A program made the translations under genes and the position numbers. A stretch of DNA of 64,000 nucleotides, taken from positions 16,688 to 80,687 of the forward strand of contig DUDM01000034.1 in NCBI GenBank assembly GCA_012959275.1, given 5' to 3'. The first letter of the stretch is position 1; each line of letters begins with the position of its first letter. This DNA is from Candidatus Poseidoniales archaeon. GTDB lineage: Archaea > Thermoplasmatota > Poseidoniia > Poseidoniales > Poseidoniaceae. Shown in pieces: positions 9,391 to 53,582 of this stretch. The notes below the pieces were generated by a model. The model ran no database searches. It worked only from the letters and a program-made list of their open reading frames with translations, and was not told the origin of the DNA.

Positions 9391-9465
9391 TGGTGCGAGC
9401 GCCGAGATTTGAACTCGGGTTCAAGCGTTGGCAACGCTCGGTGATAACCACTACACTACGCTCGC
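9391..9465 (-). tRNA. tRNA-Gly (anticodon GCC), CCA encoded
   Basis: The reverse complement reads GCGAGCG-UA-GUGUAGUGGUUAUCAC-C-GAGCG-UUGCCAA-CGCUU-GAAC-CCGAG-UUCAAAU-CUCGG-CGCUCGC-A-CCA. It has a 7-bp acceptor stem, a GCC anticodon in a 7-nt loop and a T-loop UUCAAAU. Confidence 0.9.
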
Positions 9466-46651: not shown

Positions 46652-49252
46652 TTGATAACCCCCCCTGCCTGTAGAATTAATTGGAGGATACCGGAGGTGC
46701 CAGCAAAGATCCGCAGTAATTACCGGCGAAGGCTGCTTACAACCCTCAGCATTTCTGGTTGCTCTGTTAGTGAGGCTGCTCAAAAAACAGGGCTTCGTTT
46801 ACCACACGCATCTGCAGAATTAAAGAAACTAAGAGGCGAGGGCCATGTTTCTGCGGATAGAGAGGGTGAGAGTAGAGGTTCGCACCAGAGATTAACCTCA
46901 TCAGGAATGAAATTACTTGAGTCAGATGAATTGGCTCGCTTGAAACAAGTTCTGAAGACTGGAGTGCCATCAGAAGCACAAGGATGCATTGTTGCTAGAG
47001 ATGGCGAATCACTACTGTTGGCTTACGCGGTTAATCCCGGAAAAGGCATTTTGTTGATACCAAATCAAGGGATGGAGATAATTAGTGATTCCAGTGGAAA
47101 CCAAGGGGATGAATTAGAATTCAGTTGGGTTACTCCTGTCGAGCGAAGAATACGCTGGTTTGATTCCAAAACTTTAGAGCCTACCCAAGCACCTGAATCC
47201 GGGCAATCAATGCAGACATTGGCTGCTTGGACTGAAGCAAACCAAGTTGTAGGATTAATCCGAGGGCGAACTTTGGATTATTCAAAAAGTGAGAATTTGG
47301 CTGTTGGAACTTGGTTTAAAAAACCGAAAATGAAGAACCCCCCTCCATTGCCAAATCTACTTCGTGATGGGGATTGGAATTTGGGTGAAGCACACGAATC
47401 TGCAAAGCCAGTGAAACCAGAAGTTCCACTTGTTGCGGTAGTACAGGAACGTTATGCTGCTTCTTTACTGACAAATGCAGCAAGTGAAGGGGCATGGGTA
47501 TTATCTGACCGAGCCGAATCCAACCCCATTCCAATTTCAGTTCTACAATGGTGGATTAGAGAAGTACATCCAAGACTACCTGCTGCTGAATTAAGAGATA
47601 GGCTTTCACAGGTACAAAAAGCAGCAGTTACTGGATGGAGAGGTCGAAGGAGGCGTTCAAGGCTGACAACAACATGGCAGAGATTCAGGGAATCTTGGCA
47701 AGATGTAGAGTGGCAAGAAGAACCGATTTATGAGAATCCTGCATCATTTAATATTCAGAGTTTGGATTCTTTAGCAGTGAAATCATTAATGCATTGGATT
47801 ATTGAGGATGCGAAGCAACCTTTGGTATTGAATTGGCCAACCCATCGAGATTTTGATGAAAATAAATTTGGTTCTTTACTAAATAATGGTTTGAACAGGT
47901 TGCTAATCACCCCCCATGAAATTAATTCTCCTAGTTTAGTTTTGGCCGAGGGCCCTGAAGGTTGGCCCGATTCGAGATTGAGATTACCAACAAACATTGA
48001 GATTCCTATATTGCTTGCAGAACAGAAAGAAGAGTTGATTGCACCACCTGATAATTGGACACGACCTTGGAAACCATCTGACATAATTCCCCTATCGGAA
48101 TCTTTTGACTTGGTCAAAACACCGGATGATGAATTGGAAGCATTATGGGTTGCTTGCTCTCTTTTCCCCGAGGGTGAGGAAAATTGGGCGAATAGACATG
48201 AAAGCAAATTTCCATTAGCAGCATGGATTGCTAGTAGCCAAGAGCACAGGTGGTCAAGATGGCAAAGAATTTCAAGATGGCTAAATTCTGAATGGATAGA
48301 GTTGCTACCCCCTGAAGAAGTGCCATTTTCTGAGCTGGTGAAATTATTGGCCCGAGCCACACCAGAATGGAGGATTCACGCCAGTCAAGTGATACGGAAA
48401 ACAATGATTCTGCAACCTGATGCAGTTATTGAGATGAGGAGATGGTGCAAAGAAAAATCAGATGCAGCAGTTTGTGCAGAACAAATCCTAGCAGTTGCGC
48501 CGTGGATTATCCCTCATTTAGGAAAAGCCATGGCTGTTTGGGCATACCAAGCATGGCAAGCATACCCAACTCAAGATATTGGGCCAGTATTAGAAGGTAT
48601 GAAATGGTGTGCTTGTCAAGGATTTCTCAAGAAATCATGGTCAAAGCCAATTGAAGAAGTTGCCATCAATTTGCGTTCAGGTCACCCATTGAGGCACTGG
48701 CTTTCAATCCTGAAGTGGACAACAGATGGAAAGACAATGAGGCTTGACTCAATGCGAAATTCATTCGAAGCATTACCTCTTGATTGGTGGGCTCATCTCT
48801 CTATCGAAGCATTGTCGCGACAACTCGAAGATGAAGATGGAAGAAGCTGGTTATTGGAACAACCAATTTCATGGGCTGCTGCTTGCCTAAGGCCACCAAC
48901 AGAGGAAGGAAGGTTACCAGGTGCGGATAGTCAACATCCAGGGATGGATATGAATTTAGTAGTTTCAATACGACATCACTTTGTGAATCTTGAAAATGAA
49001 AAAGGAGAAGGCAGTTCACATCTCTTAGATTTGATAGAAAGTATAGAAGACTTGGAACAAGGAAGCGCAGTAAAATGCGGTAGAACCCATCCAGCAGTTT
49101 CATGGTTGGTTAGACCAGTCGATGAGTGGGGGATATTAGACTTGACACCTGAAGGCTTTTCTTGCGATGAAATGGTCCAGGCAAGATTGGATATACGCGT
49201 CAGTGGTTTCCATTCTGGGCTATTAGAGTCCACACAAGCAAGGCTGCCTTGA
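46652..49252 (+). CDS. 866-aa orphan protein with N-terminal winged-helix (ArsR/MarR-like) domain
   Basis: Uninterrupted ORF with a non-ATG start (TTG 46652, or GTG 46697 lying 9 nt after GGAGG). N-terminal RRRLLTTLSISGCSVSEAAQKTGLRLPHASAELKKLRGEGHVSADREGESRGSHQRLT. The remainder is Trp/Arg-rich with no motif I recognise and no P-loop. Confidence 0.7.
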   Translation: MITPPACRINWRIPEVPAKIRSNYRRRLLTTLSISGCSVSEAAQKTGLRLPHASAELKKLRGEGHVSADREGESRGSHQRLTSSGMKLLESDELARLKQVLKTGVPSEAQGCIVARDGESLLLAYAVNPGKGILLIPNQGMEIISDSSGNQGDELEFSWVTPVERRIRWFDSKTLEPTQAPESGQSMQTLAAWTEANQVVGLIRGRTLDYSKSENLAVGTWFKKPKMKNPPPLPNLLRDGDWNLGEAHESAKPVKPEVPLVAVVQERYAASLLTNAASEGAWVLSDRAESNPIPISVLQWWIREVHPRLPAAELRDRLSQVQKAAVTGWRGRRRRSRLTTTWQRFRESWQDVEWQEEPIYENPASFNIQSLDSLAVKSLMHWIIEDAKQPLVLNWPTHRDFDENKFGSLLNNGLNRLLITPHEINSPSLVLAEGPEGWPDSRLRLPTNIEIPILLAEQKEELIAPPDNWTRPWKPSDIIPLSESFDLVKTPDDELEALWVACSLFPEGEENWANRHESKFPLAAWIASSQEHRWSRWQRISRWLNSEWIELLPPEEVPFSELVKLLARATPEWRIHASQVIRKTMILQPDAVIEMRRWCKEKSDAAVCAEQILAVAPWIIPHLGKAMAVWAYQAWQAYPTQDIGPVLEGMKWCACQGFLKKSWSKPIEEVAINLRSGHPLRHWLSILKWTTDGKTMRLDSMRNSFEALPLDWWAHLSIEALSRQLEDEDGRSWLLEQPISWAAACLRPPTEEGRLPGADSQHPGMDMNLVVSIRHHFVNLENEKGEGSSHLLDLIESIEDLEQGSAVKCGRTHPAVSWLVRPVDEWGILDLTPEGFSCDEMVQARLDIRVSGFHSGLLESTQARLP
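47089..47108 (+). promoter_or_regulatory. full ORB-like element TTCCAGTGGAAAC-CAA-GGGG, inside the coding sequence
   Basis: Second exact copy of TCCAGTGGAAAC in the same orientation, followed by a G-string as in full ORBs. It encodes SSGNQG of the 866-aa protein. Confidence 0.4.
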
Positions 49253-49290
49253 TATCGAATCATTGAAGAAGCATAGGCTGTCAGGACATC

Positions 49291-49578
49291 TTGCCACACC
49301 AGCAACACCGACTGGAGCAACTACCCCGCCGGGTAGACGTGATGAGAGTACGGTACCAATGAGTGTGGCATTTAGCCGTCAACGAAGACCAGGGGGATCC
49401 TTCGGGAGATGATGTCTGGTGCAAACTGGCGGCGTGATTATCGACTGAGTTTGGGTCCTTGCCCGACGAGAGGATGAATGTGAGACAACCCCTCGGTCGT
49501 ACAGATGCCCTGGTGTGAGGGTCATGCCCCTGAGGAGACTGTGAGGAGGGCTGTTACACACCGGGGCTCACTCTATCT
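49291..49578 (+). ncRNA. candidate structured noncoding RNA of about 290 nt with kink-turn motif(s); identity unresolved
   Basis: A 366-nt gap with no credible CDS. My hand count gives about 57 percent G+C over 49321-49560. Hairpin CUACCC-CGCC-GGGUAG at 49321-49336. K-turn hairpin at 49388-49420. Helix 49375-49380/49428-49433. Hairpin 49464-49499 followed by ACA. 10-bp helix 49508-49517/49557-49566. Boundaries are approximate. Confidence 0.5.
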
Positions 49579-49618
49579 TACACAAGGAATATCTCCTTCC
49601 CTCCCTGCCACTTCTTTG

Positions 49619-50626
49619 ATGGCAAGACAATTCAGCCGTTGTCTGGTAGGTGGAACCTTTGACAGATTCCATGCTGGCCATATTTATCTGCTCGATTTAG
49701 CACTTTCAAAATCTCAGCATGTTGAAGTTTGGATAACCGATGACAAGATGGTTTCAGATAAGGTAGGTATTCCATTAGAACTAGACAGGCGCATGGATGA
49801 ACTTTCCGAATGGGCTGAATTGAAACATGGAGATCGAATCAGCCTTCATATTCTTAGAGATAAATTTGGACCAGCACCACATCGAAAGGATTGTGATGCG
49901 ATTGCTTGCACTATTGAGACCAAGAGAAATTGTTTATCGATAAATGAGCAACGTTATGCAGCAGGATTGGAAGCCTTGGAAATCATTGTTGCTCCCCATA
50001 TTGAAGATGGTGCAGGAGGAATAATCAGCAGTACAAGAATAAGGGCTGGAATTATTGATAGAGATGGGAATCCATGGCTGGTCGATAATGACCAAGACCG
50101 AAAGATGCCGAAAGTACTGGATGATTCACTTAAGCAACCAATGGGCATTCTATATGAAGGTCCAGAAGAATACCCTGAATTAGCAATGCGGAAAGCATTG
50201 GAAGAAATCCCAAATTCTTCGAGCATCATAGCAGTTGGAGATGTATGCGTTCAAACTATGTTAGAGATAGGAGTTCGCCCATGGATTGGATTTATCGATG
50301 GCCGAACTAAAAGACAACTTCTCGATGAATCAGAAACAGTTTCAACAGAAGGTTGGGAAGCAATCATTCATTGTACAAACCCACCTGGTATTATCTCATC
50401 AGATTTGATAAAAACTTGTCGTAAATCTGTAAATTCAGATGGCACAGTGTTGGTGGTGGTGGATGGAGAAGAGGACCTCGTTCCCATCCCAATTCATATG
50501 ATGTTACCATTAGATTGCTACCTCATATATGGTCAACCAAACAAAGGTGTGGTGGTGCGAATTAGTGATGAAACTGTGAAGCAACGTTGCAGAGAAATGT
50601 TTGCTGCTTTTGAGGTGATTCCTTGA
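49619..50626 (+). CDS. bifunctional phosphopantetheine adenylyltransferase (archaeal PPAT) / GTP-dependent dephospho-CoA kinase (DUF359) fusion
   Basis: ATG at 49619 gives MARQFSRCLVGGTFDRFHAGH (the nucleotidyltransferase HxGH motif). The C-terminal half has VGDVCVQ, DGRTKRQ, NPPGII, VDGEEDLVPIP and YGQPNKGVV, matching the DUF359 DPCK pattern. Confidence 0.85.
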   Translation: MARQFSRCLVGGTFDRFHAGHIYLLDLALSKSQHVEVWITDDKMVSDKVGIPLELDRRMDELSEWAELKHGDRISLHILRDKFGPAPHRKDCDAIACTIETKRNCLSINEQRYAAGLEALEIIVAPHIEDGAGGIISSTRIRAGIIDRDGNPWLVDNDQDRKMPKVLDDSLKQPMGILYEGPEEYPELAMRKALEEIPNSSSIIAVGDVCVQTMLEIGVRPWIGFIDGRTKRQLLDESETVSTEGWEAIIHCTNPPGIISSDLIKTCRKSVNSDGTVLVVVDGEEDLVPIPIHMMLPLDCYLIYGQPNKGVVVRISDETVKQRCREMFAAFEVIP

Positions 50627-51687: not shown

Positions 51688-52311
51688 TTAGTCCATCGGC
51701 GCAACTTCGCCATCTTCTGCAGGCATAATGAATAAGGCAATACCGAACCCAATTAATGCTGCAGCGACAGAATAGACACCAGGATCAATCCATCCAGTGT
51801 GGGCGATTCCCCAATAAAAGTAGAAAATGATTCCAATTGCTAGAAGCCATGAGGAGAATGTTTTCCTCCAACCACCCTCTTCGGCATTCATCATTGCTAG
51901 CCAATAGTCGTTGACAAAGAGGTTTTTCAGCCATGCAGCCATGCCACCTTCAAAATGGGTATTGATGCCTTTTGCTCCTAGTCCAATGAGCACTAGCCCC
52001 ATAGTTAGGAATGCACTATCACCTAAGATGTGGAATCCTTGACCACTTGTTTCAGTAAACAAAATTTCCCCAAATGCACCAAGGCTCAAGAAACCGACCC
52101 AGGAGACTTTGCCACTTGGATGTGCCATCACAAGTACGTTGAGTATTCCCAATAGTAAGATCCAAGCCCCTAACGCGAAAAACCAAACCGAAATGCTGCG
52201 ACCCGGATTGAGGATGGAATTGATGAAGCCGCCTTCAGCCTCGCCCTTCTCAGTCTCTGACATGGCCACGCCGACCATCGGTTCTCGTTTAAGTGGCTCG
52301 GCTTGCTTCAC
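51688..52311 (-). CDS. hypothetical integral membrane protein, overlapping the orc1/cdc6 stop by 4 nt
   Basis: 207 aa with about six hydrophobic spans. Family not recognised. Confidence 0.6.
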   Translation of the reverse strand: MKQAEPLKREPMVGVAMSETEKGEAEGGFINSILNPGRSISVWFFALGAWILLLGILNVLVMAHPSGKVSWVGFLSLGAFGEILFTETSGQGFHILGDSAFLTMGLVLIGLGAKGINTHFEGGMAAWLKNLFVNDYWLAMMNAEEGGWRKTFSSWLLAIGIIFYFYWGIAHTGWIDPGVYSVAAALIGFGIALFIMPAEDGEVAPMD

Positions 52312-53558
52312 AGGCGAGTTTGGAACCTGTACGAACCTGAATCAACCGCACTAAGTGCTTCATCTGATGCAATCATTAATGAGGTAGCATCGATGGAAAT
52401 TGGCATACATGAGTTGATTTGTTTACTTCTTCCATAACGCCCTCGGCTAACGGTTTTCGAATTAATTAACCCTAACATATCAAGATTGGAGAGTAGGTCA
52501 GTTATTCTTCTTTGAGTGAGGTTATTCGTGCCATAATGTTGGCAGGCCTGTCTGTAGATTTCATAGACTTCACCAGTTGCAATATTTGAGAGACCATTCT
52601 TTTCATTGAGAAGCACAGAGTAGAGGACTAGTTTTTGTTGTGGAGGGAGAGTTTTGATTATCGGAGTTATCTGATCGCATTCAATTTGGTTTTGAGCCAT
52701 CCTTACATGTTGTACTTCTACTGTTTCACAACCGGATTGCTCAGCCTTTTCAGTAGATACTCTAAGCAAATCCAATGCTCTTCGAGCATCACCGTGTTCT
52801 TGGGCTGCAAGAGCAGAGCATAGTTGCAAAACACCTTCACTGAGAGAATTAGTTTTGATACCAATCTCAGCACGGTCTTCGAGAATATCTTTCAGTTGTA
52901 CAGCATCATATGGTGAAAAAATGACATCTTCTTGACCTAAACGACTTTTAACGCGGGGGTCGAGGTATTCGGTAAACTTCAAATCATTACTTATGCCAAT
53001 TACACAGCATCTGGCTTGGCCCCTTCTCTTCAAATCATCATTGATATTACATAGGTTGTAGAGTAGGTCATCTCCAACCTTCTTCACTAAATGATCTATT
53101 TCATCAAGAACGATAACATGTACGCCACCGCGTTCATTCATCCTCTTAACTAATTCTTCAAACACCCTGTCTGTTGGCCAACCGGTGAATGGAATATCTT
53201 CTTTTTCATTATCTTCTAATAATGAGTTTCCAAGGAAAGCAAGGACGCGATATTGGGTGTCTATCGTACGACAATTGACATGTACTGGGTTAACCGACTT
53301 GCCGATTTGTTTACCCTTGCCCTCAAGTTGTGAGCAGATGAACCTTGTAACCGCAGTTTTTCCAGCACCAGTTACGCCGTAAAGAACCATGTTGGAAGGA
53401 ATTTGACCTTTCAGAGCCTCAACCAAATTGAACCGAATGGCTTTAATTTCTTTCTTTCTATGCGGGAGTTCACTTGGATGGTGAGAATGCCTCAAGACTT
53501 CTTTATTGACAAAGAGACTAGGATGGGACAGAAGATTATCGAAAATATTTTCTCCCAT
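52308..53558 (-). CDS. orc1: Orc1/Cdc6 replication initiator
   Basis: ATG at 53558 (MGENIFDNLL). Walker A LYGVTGAGKTA, Walker B VIVLDEIDHL, a sensor region and a C-terminal winged helix (RRITDLLSNLDMLGLINSKTVSRGRYGRSKQI). Confidence 0.92.
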   Translation of the reverse strand: MGENIFDNLLSHPSLFVNKEVLRHSHHPSELPHRKKEIKAIRFNLVEALKGQIPSNMVLYGVTGAGKTAVTRFICSQLEGKGKQIGKSVNPVHVNCRTIDTQYRVLAFLGNSLLEDNEKEDIPFTGWPTDRVFEELVKRMNERGGVHVIVLDEIDHLVKKVGDDLLYNLCNINDDLKRRGQARCCVIGISNDLKFTEYLDPRVKSRLGQEDVIFSPYDAVQLKDILEDRAEIGIKTNSLSEGVLQLCSALAAQEHGDARRALDLLRVSTEKAEQSGCETVEVQHVRMAQNQIECDQITPIIKTLPPQQKLVLYSVLLNEKNGLSNIATGEVYEIYRQACQHYGTNNLTQRRITDLLSNLDMLGLINSKTVSRGRYGRSKQINSCMPISIDATSLMIASDEALSAVDSGSYRFQTRL

Positions 53559-53582
53559 TTTGTAACATCTCCTTGATTTCAA

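Follow-up and report, generated by a model that had tools for sequence, protein, structure and literature searches.

Archaeal box H/ACA guide RNAs are built from a motif that consists of a lower stem (P1), a pocket, an upper stem (P2) and a kink-turn (K-turn) or kink-loop (K-loop) with two sheared G:A pairs (Majumder et al. 2020, PMC7075261). In this motif, the distal G:A pair lies 9-10 nucleotides (nt) from the P2 base, the target U lies 15 +/- 1 nt from the ACA, and the ACA or ANA box is found in the 3′ tail of P1 (PMC7075261). Archaeal H/ACA RNAs have been described with one to three motifs, three being the number in the HgcG/Pab40 family. Pab40, whose counterparts are Pf7, Pho40 and Afu4, is a small RNA (sRNA) with three H/ACA motifs, of which motif 1 is directed to pseudouridine (Psi) 2588 and motif 3 to Psi2016, in helix 69, of the P. 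abyssi (Pab) 23S rRNA (Muller et al. 2008, PMC2377435). For motif 2 of Afu4 and Pf7, the equivalent of Pab 2647 has been proposed as a target; Muller et al. favour that of Pab 2678 instead, which is a pseudouridine in Haloarcula marismortui (Hma) (PMC2377435). In Haloferax, the equivalent of E. coli U1915 and the next-but-one U are Psi1940 and Psi1942, which are made by the 3′ stem-loop of sR-h45 (PMC7075261), and the ANA of the H box is required in this RNA of two stem-loops (Majumder et al., PMC7075261). The atypical H/ACA-like sRNAs of Pyrobaculum, as far as they are described where PMC7991803 cites Bernick et al. 2012, have no canonical ACA box. Here, we analysed a stretch of 64,000 nt (the window) from a Candidatus Poseidoniales archaeon (assembly GCA_012959275.1, contig DUDM01000034.1, positions 16,688 to 80,687) and found, in a GC-rich gap between two genes, an island that is very probably the gene for a box H/ACA guide sRNA of about 280 nt, the Poseidoniales version of the HgcG/Pab40/Pf7/Afu-4 family. 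The Poseidoniales, or Marine Group II (MGII), are among the most abundant archaea of the surface ocean and have never been cultured.

The gap lies between the end of an open reading frame (ORF) of 866 amino acids (aa) at 49252 and the ATG of a PPAT-DUF359 fusion gene at 49619, and spans 49253-49618 (366 nt). A sequence-only reading of the window had described it as devoid of a credible ORF and about 57% G+C, and both descriptions held: no reading frame is conserved on either strand across homologs, and the G+C content is 0.55-0.565 in the gap, and 0.56 across the covariance-model match given below, against 0.41-0.46 in the flanks (about 0.43). For comparison, we used the surroundings of PPAT-DUF359 orthologs in one reference genome and in eight groups of metagenome contigs, and every homologous gap was found to hold a recognisable copy of the window RNA (9 distinct lineages). 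The PPAT proteins are 45-62% identical between these lineages, and the RNA is much better conserved. A covariance model (R1) was built from an unguided MAFFT alignment of 10 sequences (A3) together with a structure of four hairpins (H1 to H4, from 5′ to 3′) derived by eye. Its single match in the window is at 49288-49580 (plus strand; 268 bits, E 6e-93), and each homologous locus also has one (E 1e-93 to 1e-101 in L002, L012, L011 and L014); second copies or paralogs were found neither in the rest of the window nor in 56 MGII loci totalling 0.6 Mb. The RNA is a conserved, single-copy, non-coding gene on the plus strand.

A protein-coding explanation, in which the region would be a small gene, the N-terminus of PPAT (as a 373-aa ORF with its start at 49505) or a frame on the minus strand, can draw on the presence of the 373-aa ORF in public protein sets (P0001) and on the minus strand of 49288-49580, where stop-free stretches of 85-95 codons extend over nearly all of the RNA in most homologs. 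However, these minus-strand frames lie in differing phases and encode unrelated peptides, the substitutions in the stems are compensatory, and the N-terminal extension is missing from the 335-aa orthologs, all of which begin MARQFSRCLVGG; the 373-aa ORF is an over-extension that overlaps H4. Coding by this region is hence hardly conceivable. The same gene-caller over-extension was seen in P0001, P0003, P0012, P0020, P0040 and P0046, which are 355-391 aa long, compared with about 335 aa, and overlap H3 or H4.

The four tandem hairpins share a common plan: above a lower stem and an internal loop, the upper stem leads to a K-turn in H1 and H2 or to a K-loop in H3 and H4 (Table 1). They are local hairpins separated by linkers of 4-9 nt, and no helix joins the two ends of the RNA. 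When the pairs of this structure (10 helices, 60 pairs) were scored on the MAFFT alignment of 10 sequences, 88.9% of the cells were paired and 40 of the 60 pairs had changed on both sides, while none of 500 column shuffles attained any of the five measures used. As a control, the 3′ partners were slid by 1-3 columns, which lowered the pairing to only 36-43%. The covariance-model alignment led to the same result (88.9-91.3% pairing over the two alignments), and RNAalifold, run on it without the structure being supplied, returned the identical four hairpins with 44 of 61 pairs compensatory. The alignment of orthologous regions that the sequence-only reading had proposed as a check has therefore yielded compensatory substitutions, and three of its structural elements, for which 10 homologs show compensatory changes, are placed exactly. 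These are the hairpin with the K-turn (49388-49420), the 7+7 loop with its closing stem GCCGUC/GGCGGC (49375-80 and 49428-33) and the 10-bp helix between 49508-17 and 49557-66. A small GUCC/GGAC hairpin that had been drawn for H3 was replaced, as L002, L020, L016 and L001 support an upper stem of CUUGCC/GGCAAG.

The same fold bears on the possibility of a divergent RNase P RNA, which the earlier reading had kept among its options and in which the K-turns would be those of P12/P16 and bind L7Ae. A length of about 280 nt and two K-turns would suit such an RNA, and an RNase MRP model does align to the 3′ end, weakly and at chance level (8 bits, E 2.4-4.3). However, no match to the family was obtained in Rfam at E<=10, the homologs match an H/ACA family instead, and the four independent covarying hairpins leave no end-joining P1 and no P4 pseudoknot. 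The string ACACACCGGGGCUCA, which resembles CR-V among the conserved regions CR-I to CR-V of RNase P RNA, forms the 3′ side of a local 10-bp helix and covaries with the 5′ side, and a P4-like pairing of GACCAGGGGG with CCCCUCGGUC, proposed by eye, fails in L001 and clashes with the covarying local stems. The chance that the RNA is an RNase P RNA is hence vanishingly small. Signal recognition particle (SRP) RNA, which is marked by a long helix 5 between the ends and by helix 8 motifs with a GNAR tetraloop, was rejected as well, as there is no Rfam match and the fold is not rod-like. What remains of the earlier description, a structured K-turn RNA on the plus strand that is neither SRP nor RNase P RNA, agrees with the four independent hairpins and with the lack of an Rfam match.

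We then compared the hairpins with the geometry of H/ACA units. All four have the P1-pocket-P2 form, and the tandem GA/GA signature (GA...(NNU)GA), from which the K-turns and K-loops were called in the sequence, is invariant in all four units of all 11 sequences. In the window, the distal G.A pair lies 10 (H1), 10 (H2), 9 (H3) and 8-9 nt (H4) from the P2 base. An N-ACA follows H3 in 11 of 11 sequences, 14-16 nt from the top of the pocket depending on the target register, and the ACA at 49501-03 had already been pointed out. After H4, N-ACA is found in 9 of 11 sequences, the exceptions being the window and its 97% relative L008, both with CUCACU; this terminal box is shared by the window and its 97% relatives L008-L010, and the terminal ACA has apparently been lost recently in the window. 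In the H4 homologs, 15 nt separate the ACA from the part of the pocket that pairs (GUUA, 10-bp P1 and one more nucleotide). The boxes after the two 5′ hairpins are less regular: AUA or ACA follows H2 in 4 of 11 sequences (AAA in L020, by eye, and none in the window), and a candidate box follows H1 in only 2 of 11. Judged by these distances and motifs, H/ACA geometry fits all four units, and the box follows the two 3′ units, H4 in 9 of 11 sequences.

These results also change how several elements of the earlier description are read. The hairpin given as 49464-49499 is indeed a hairpin followed by ACA, but its true extent is 49442-49499 (H3), and the GGAUGA placed in its loop is the 3′ half of the K-loop. 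The string GUGAUGA at 49339-45, described as box-C-like, is the bulged strand of a second K-turn, that of H1, and the C/D-like GUGAUUA...CUGA at 49434-48 consists of the linker and the H3 lower stem and is not conserved in homologs. The likeness of the internal loop to an H/ACA pocket and the option of a composite guide RNA had both been noticed, whereas the H/ACA class itself had been dropped for want of an ACA after the one K-turn hairpin (H2); an ACA does follow H3 and, in most of the family, H4.

A permissive Rfam scan pointed to the same class. Four homologs matched RF00064, HgcG (Pab40), a family of the HACA-box type: L002 with 40.8 bits (E 3e-8), L012 with 39.3 bits (E 1e-9), L011 with 33.4 bits (E 6e-6) and L014 with 19.1 bits (E 0.12). 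The homologs align to model positions 55/58-276, H2 covering 58-121, H3 122-197 and H4 198-276; H1 did not align to the RF00064 model in the homologs and had no Rfam match on its own. The first-pass Rfam scan was empty because the family scores below threshold or goes undetected with RF00064. The outcome of the Rfam scan called for by the sequence-only reading is thus a divided one, as the window copy has no match to RF00064 and four homologs match it below threshold, three of them significantly (E 1e-9 to 6e-6). The window RNA is a distant relative and not a curated member of RF00064; it belongs to a known class and is not a new kind of RNA.

To look for targets, we used the rRNA operon of H. 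marismortui pHMA288 (locus L143, a 6.4-kb stretch), with E. coli rrnH for numbering. The H4 pocket (3′ strand GUUA, 5′ strand AGGGUCA) is complementary to Hma 23S UAAC-[UA]-UGACCCU, with Watson-Crick pairs at 11 of 11 positions. This site is the unique best in the 6.4-kb stretch, it was equalled in 0 of 200 shuffles, and its unpaired U corresponds to E. coli U1915 in helix 69. As the 5′ pocket strand of H4 can also pair with the second helix-69 U, one pseudouridine and not two is predicted, because the engineered '1940 guide', to which H4 is analogous, pairs likewise and made only one. The H2 pocket (GCAAAC / CGAAG, with GCAAGC in L018) was matched to Hma GCUUGC-[UA]-CCUCG at E. coli position 2496, the 3′ end of helix 89 in the peptidyl-transferase ring. 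With 8-10 of 11-13 pairs, it is the top match for both pocket variants, and shuffles did as well in 1 of 200 cases for the L018 variant and in 23 of 200 for that of the window. The L018 strand, GCAAGC instead of GCAAAC, would match the GCUUGC of a haloarchaeal-type helix 89, and this change may represent guide-target co-variation. For H3, one candidate lies in the A loop, GGUUGU-[UC]-GCCUAU at E. coli U2555 or, with three unpaired bases, U2554; the alternative is GGGUU-[UA]-GACC at U2586. Both kinds of candidate lie within 15 +/- 1 nt of the ACA.

Placing these sites beside those of Pab40 requires an offset between the P. abyssi and E. coli numberings. In domain V it was inferred to be 92, because Pab35 positions 2549, 2672 and 2697 correspond to the RluE, RluB and RluC sites, which we take to be 2457, 2580 and 2605 in E. 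coli, and because of the equivalence of Pab 2678 with its Hma counterpart. Pab 2588, 2647 and 2678 then correspond to E. coli 2496, 2555 and 2586. On this numbering, the targets predicted for H2, H3 and H4 would be those of motifs 1, 2 and 3, in the same order, and the two options for H3 would be the two sites debated for motif 2 of Afu4 and Pf7.

Other rRNA was less informative. No convincing target was seen in E. coli rRNA, as bacteria differ at helix 69 and at position 2496. MGII 16S rRNA was sampled from 120 loci (L022-L141), obtained in a metagenome scan with the MGII probe Eury806, the sequence of which was checked in the literature; it gave no convincing target for the pockets of the RNA. 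In the MGII loci longer than 9 kb (about 45), the surroundings of the 16S gene, covered for up to about 10 kb, showed no 23S motif, so that Marine Group II archaea appear to have unlinked 16S and 23S genes. A search for archaeal 23S strings in three viral-contig scans returned one 3′-terminal fragment and otherwise chance matches.

The weak boxes of the 5′ hairpins leave room for an alternative in which the RNA is another K-turn, L7Ae-binding RNA, for instance a chaperone of rRNA folding or a C/D-H/ACA composite. Its pockets, above all those of H1 and H2, would then be loops that bind protein or RNA and not catalytic guides. It would account for the lack of a conserved ANA box at H1 and H2 and of any at the window H4, for an H1 without a target and for C-box-like strings such as GUGAUGA. 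These strings, however, are bulged K-turn strands whose position, 10 nt above the pocket, is that seen in H/ACA units; neither a conserved D box nor a terminal C/D pairing is present. Moreover, the H2 pocket matches the site of Pab40 motif 1, the motif to which H2 aligns in Rfam, and guides with a single stem-loop reportedly do not need the ACA for typical guide-target geometry (Majumder et al., PMC7075261). We therefore consider this alternative quite unlikely. A plain box C/D sRNA, in which conserved C (RUGAUGA) and D (CUGA) boxes are joined through a terminal stem with guide regions in between, was rejected, as the C-like strings lie inside H/ACA-type hairpins and the only Rfam match of this kind was sR11 (11.7 bits, E 8.9).

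The position of the RNA bears on a further alternative, raised by the sequence-only reading, that it is a cis-acting structured leader or riboswitch of the PPAT-DUF359 coenzyme A (CoA) gene. The RNA is always directly upstream of this gene and on the same strand, and in the window no strong terminator lies between the two. On the other hand, T-runs of the archaeal termination type separate RNA and gene in four lineages: L001 has a T7 run 3′ of the ACA, in addition to a TATA-like box 5′ of the RNA, L016 and L019 have T-runs at the corresponding 3′ place, and the run of L020 lies about 10 nt further downstream. This argues for what would be a separate transcript in these T-run-bearing lineages. 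The spacer before the start codon is not conserved and ranges in length from about 45 nt to over 150 nt; the fourfold plan of K-turn, pocket and ACA and the complementarity to rRNA would have no role in a leader, and the homologs match HgcG/Pab40. A leader function thus has a smaller chance still than the other K-turn RNAs considered above. A scan for sigma-70 promoters and intrinsic terminators gave nothing, with a model that is unsuitable for an archaeon.

Several observations weigh against the identification of the RNA as an H/ACA guide of the HgcG/Pab40 family. The RF00064 scores of the homologs are all below the gathering score of 77 (41 bits at most), the window copy was undetected even at E<=10, and six other family members were not detected either. 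The minimum free energy of the RNA did not differ significantly from that of shuffled sequences (z -0.95 on the plus and -0.51 on the minus strand); the structure is considered real because of comparative and not thermodynamic evidence, and the sequence alone could not have settled it. In the window, a canonical ACA is present only at H3, H4 has CUCACU, and H1 and H2 are without an ANA box. The targets were scored on haloarchaeal 23S rRNA and not on that of the host, the H2 pocket of the window has two mismatches to the Hma site, and the H3 target is ambiguous, neither option being significant alone without post-hoc choices. For H1, searches of Hma and E. coli rRNA, of MGII 16S and of about 1 Mb of MGII contigs yielded no target; its strict core pattern UGGU-UN-GUUG[CU] gave only three chance matches, in coding DNA, in about 1 Mb of sequence. 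Finally, tblastn with Pyrococcus and Archaeoglobus protein queries found no L7Ae, Cbf5, Nop10 or Gar1 gene in a sample of only about 1 Mb (the window and the homologous and MGII loci). Against these points stand the fold, the GA/GA and ACA geometry, the complementarity to 23S rRNA and the similarity of homologs to RF00064, because of which the RNA is assigned to the H/ACA class and most likely guides the conversion of uridine to pseudouridine at key positions in 23S rRNA.

In the mechanism that we propose for such a guide, each of the four hairpins would be one H/ACA unit. By analogy with characterised guides, L7Ae would bind the upper-stem K-turn (H1 and H2) or K-loop (H3 and H4), and Cbf5-Nop10-Gar1 would dock on the lower stem, the ACA where it is present and the upper stem. 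The strands of the internal loop would pair with 23S rRNA on both sides of an unpaired uridine, which would thereby be placed in the active site of Cbf5 and presumably be isomerised to pseudouridine. The predicted sites are, in E. coli numbering, U1915 for H4, 2496 for H2 and U2586 or U2554/2555 for H3, and H1 would be an extra 5′ unit without an assigned site. A bolder version, which we put forward tentatively and consider rather unlikely as a whole, is that this is a four-unit H/ACA RNA, one unit beyond any described archaeal one, in which most units work without an ANA box, through L7Ae/Nop10 and the neighbouring units and not through a PUA-ACA anchor. In that version, the strongly conserved H1 (pocket GCAAC / ACCAAUG) would act outside the conserved rRNA core, on a lineage-specific 23S site, on a tRNA or other RNA, or in a non-catalytic chaperone role.

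Table 1. Positions of the RNA, its parts and other features in the window (position 1 is the first letter of the 64-kb stretch).
Feature	Position	Strand	Description
Whole RNA gene	49288..49580	+	extent according to the family covariance model; structured core 49293-49566, 3′ tail to ~49572
H1 (orphan unit)	49293..49369	+	
H1 P1	49293-99 / 49363-69	+	GCCACAC/GUGUGGC; 98% paired, 3 doubly changed pairs
H1 pocket	49300-06 and 49355-62	+	5′ strand CAGCAAC, 3′ strand ACCAAUGA
H1 P2	49307-13 / 49347-54	+	ACCGACU/AGU(A)CGGU; 89% paired, 5 doubly changed pairs
H1 K-turn	49315-16 with 49344-45	+	G.A/A.G; 3-nt bulge GAU 49341-43
H1 C-stem and cap	49317-40	+	
H1 tail		+	AUUUA, no ANA box
H2	49375..49433	+	
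H2 P1	49375-80 / 49428-33	+	GCCGUC/GGCGGC
H2 pocket	49381-87 and 49421-27	+	AACGAAG and GCAAACU (7+7 loop)
H2 P2	49388-93 / 49415-20	+	supported by covariation
H2 K-turn	49396-97 and 49411-12	+	GA and GA; bulge GAU 49408-10
H2 C-stem	49398-400 / 49405-07	+	UCC/GGA, UUCG cap
H2 tail		+	GUGAUUAU, no ANA in the window
H3 and ACA box	49442..49503	+	hairpin 49442-49499, U, then ACA 49501-03
H3 P1	49442-49 / 49492-99	+	CGACUGAG/CUCGGUCG; 5 doubly changed pairs
H3 pocket	49450-57 and 49485-91	+	UUUGGGUC and ACAACCC
H3 P2	49458-62 / 49480-84	+	CUUGC/GUGAG; 94% paired, 4 doubly changed pairs
H3 K-loop	49463-79	+	GA 49465-66, GAU-GA 49473-77 (GA 49476-77)
H4 and degenerate 3′ box	49508..49572	+	hairpin 49508-49566
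H4 P1	49508-17 / 49557-66	+	10 bp; 99% paired, 6 doubly changed pairs
H4 pocket	49518-25 and 49552-56	+	AGGGUCAU and UGUUA
H4 P2	49526-31 / 49545-51	+	GCCCCU/GG(A)GGGC
H4 K-loop	49532-44	+	GA 49532-33, UGU-GA 49540-44 (GA 49543-44)
H4 tail	49567-72	+	CUCACU; N-ACA in 9/11 family members
Upstream syntenic ORF	46652..49252	+	866 aa, no Pfam domain, outside the RNA
PPAT (CTP_transf_like) + DUF359 fusion gene	49619..50626	+	start ATG 49619
Orc1/Cdc6 gene	52308-53582	-	
tRNA-Gly(GCC)	9391-9465	-	sole Rfam match at gathering threshold in the 64-kb window

The gene order around the RNA is shared by the homologous loci. In those of L001-L020 whose contigs reach upstream, an ORF of about 750-870 aa without a Pfam domain is followed by a gap of 250-490 nt and by PPAT-DUF359, then come a GT2 glycosyltransferase gene and a gene of about 200 aa, and in the loci fetched with long flanks the Orc1/Cdc6 gene is next. 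The upstream ORF keeps its synteny immediately 5′ of the RNA and is 753-853 aa long in homologs. The closest named relatives of the PPAT-DUF359 protein of the window are those of Poseidoniales (about 48% identity). The same RNA and gene order were also seen at L018:1162-1450, in a region of about 70% GC on a 3.0-Mb contig (ctg495766, ERZ26167216). Two sub-threshold Rfam matches to archaeal C/D sRNAs, sR2 at L001:6287-6341 on the plus strand (19.5 bits) and sR30 at L002:6492-6545 on the minus strand (16.6 bits), lie in or beside the Orc1/Cdc6 gene region.

Standard Rfam annotation finds no H/ACA family in the window. The gene and model R1 provide a first handle on rRNA modification in MGII, with predicted pseudouridylated positions of 23S rRNA in helix 69, in the peptidyl-transferase ring and in the A loop or the 2586 region. 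They also correct a recurrent annotation error, namely PPAT genes extended upstream across the RNA. The guide represented by HgcG, Pab40, Pf7, Afu-4 and sR-h45, with its fixed order of targets, would be at least as old as the ancestor of several euryarchaeal and Thermoplasmatota lineages, and two natural variants, the additional orphan hairpin and the decay of the ACA boxes, bear on the debated need for the ACA box. The result overturns nothing in current understanding; it is useful for annotation and mildly relevant to the evolution of H/ACA RNAs.

With respect to known systems, the RNA most resembles HgcG, Pab40, Pf7, Pho40 and Afu-4 of Thermococcales, Methanococcales and Archaeoglobus, which likewise consist of H/ACA hairpins in tandem that bear a K-turn or K-loop. 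Its last 3′ pocket strand, UGUUA, is identical to that of HgcG/Pab40, and the middle unit of that family shares GGUC ... AACCC with it. The window family differs from HgcG/Pab40 in an extra 5′ hairpin of 77 nt, H1, with a conserved pocket of its own in every lineage sampled, in the degenerate ANA boxes after H1 and H2 and in the terminal ACA, which is gone in the window. The 5′ pocket strand of H4 differs as well, being AGGGUCA, which suits a UGACCC-type helix 69 as in haloarchaea, instead of the GGUUAG of HgcG/Pab40.

Precedent for guides without an ACA, such as H1, H2 and the window H4 would be, comes from the H/ACA-like sRNAs of Pyrobaculum, to the extent that these are described in the citing article. 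The Pyrobaculum RNAs are reportedly single hairpins that also lack a lower stem; unlike them, the window RNA has all four lower stems, and these covary. The sR-h45 of Haloferax volcanii, which is functionally equivalent to HgcG/Pab40/Pf7/Afu-4 and was compared with the window RNA by description only, is intergenic too. Its first stem-loop (SL1) is directed to Psi2605 (Psi2621 in Hma, U2586 in E. coli) and its second (SL2) to helix 69, where the targets Psi1940/1942 lie in a UAUG flanked by GGG...CCC, in the same 5′-to-3′ order as H3 and H4. Whereas sR-h45 has two stem-loops, a linker of 56 nt and a functional H box, the window RNA has four hairpins with linkers of 4-9 nt, and whereas SL2 makes two pseudouridines and has four unpaired nucleotides (UNUN), the H4 pocket can pair with the second U and in this resembles the 'perfect 1940 guide', which made one.

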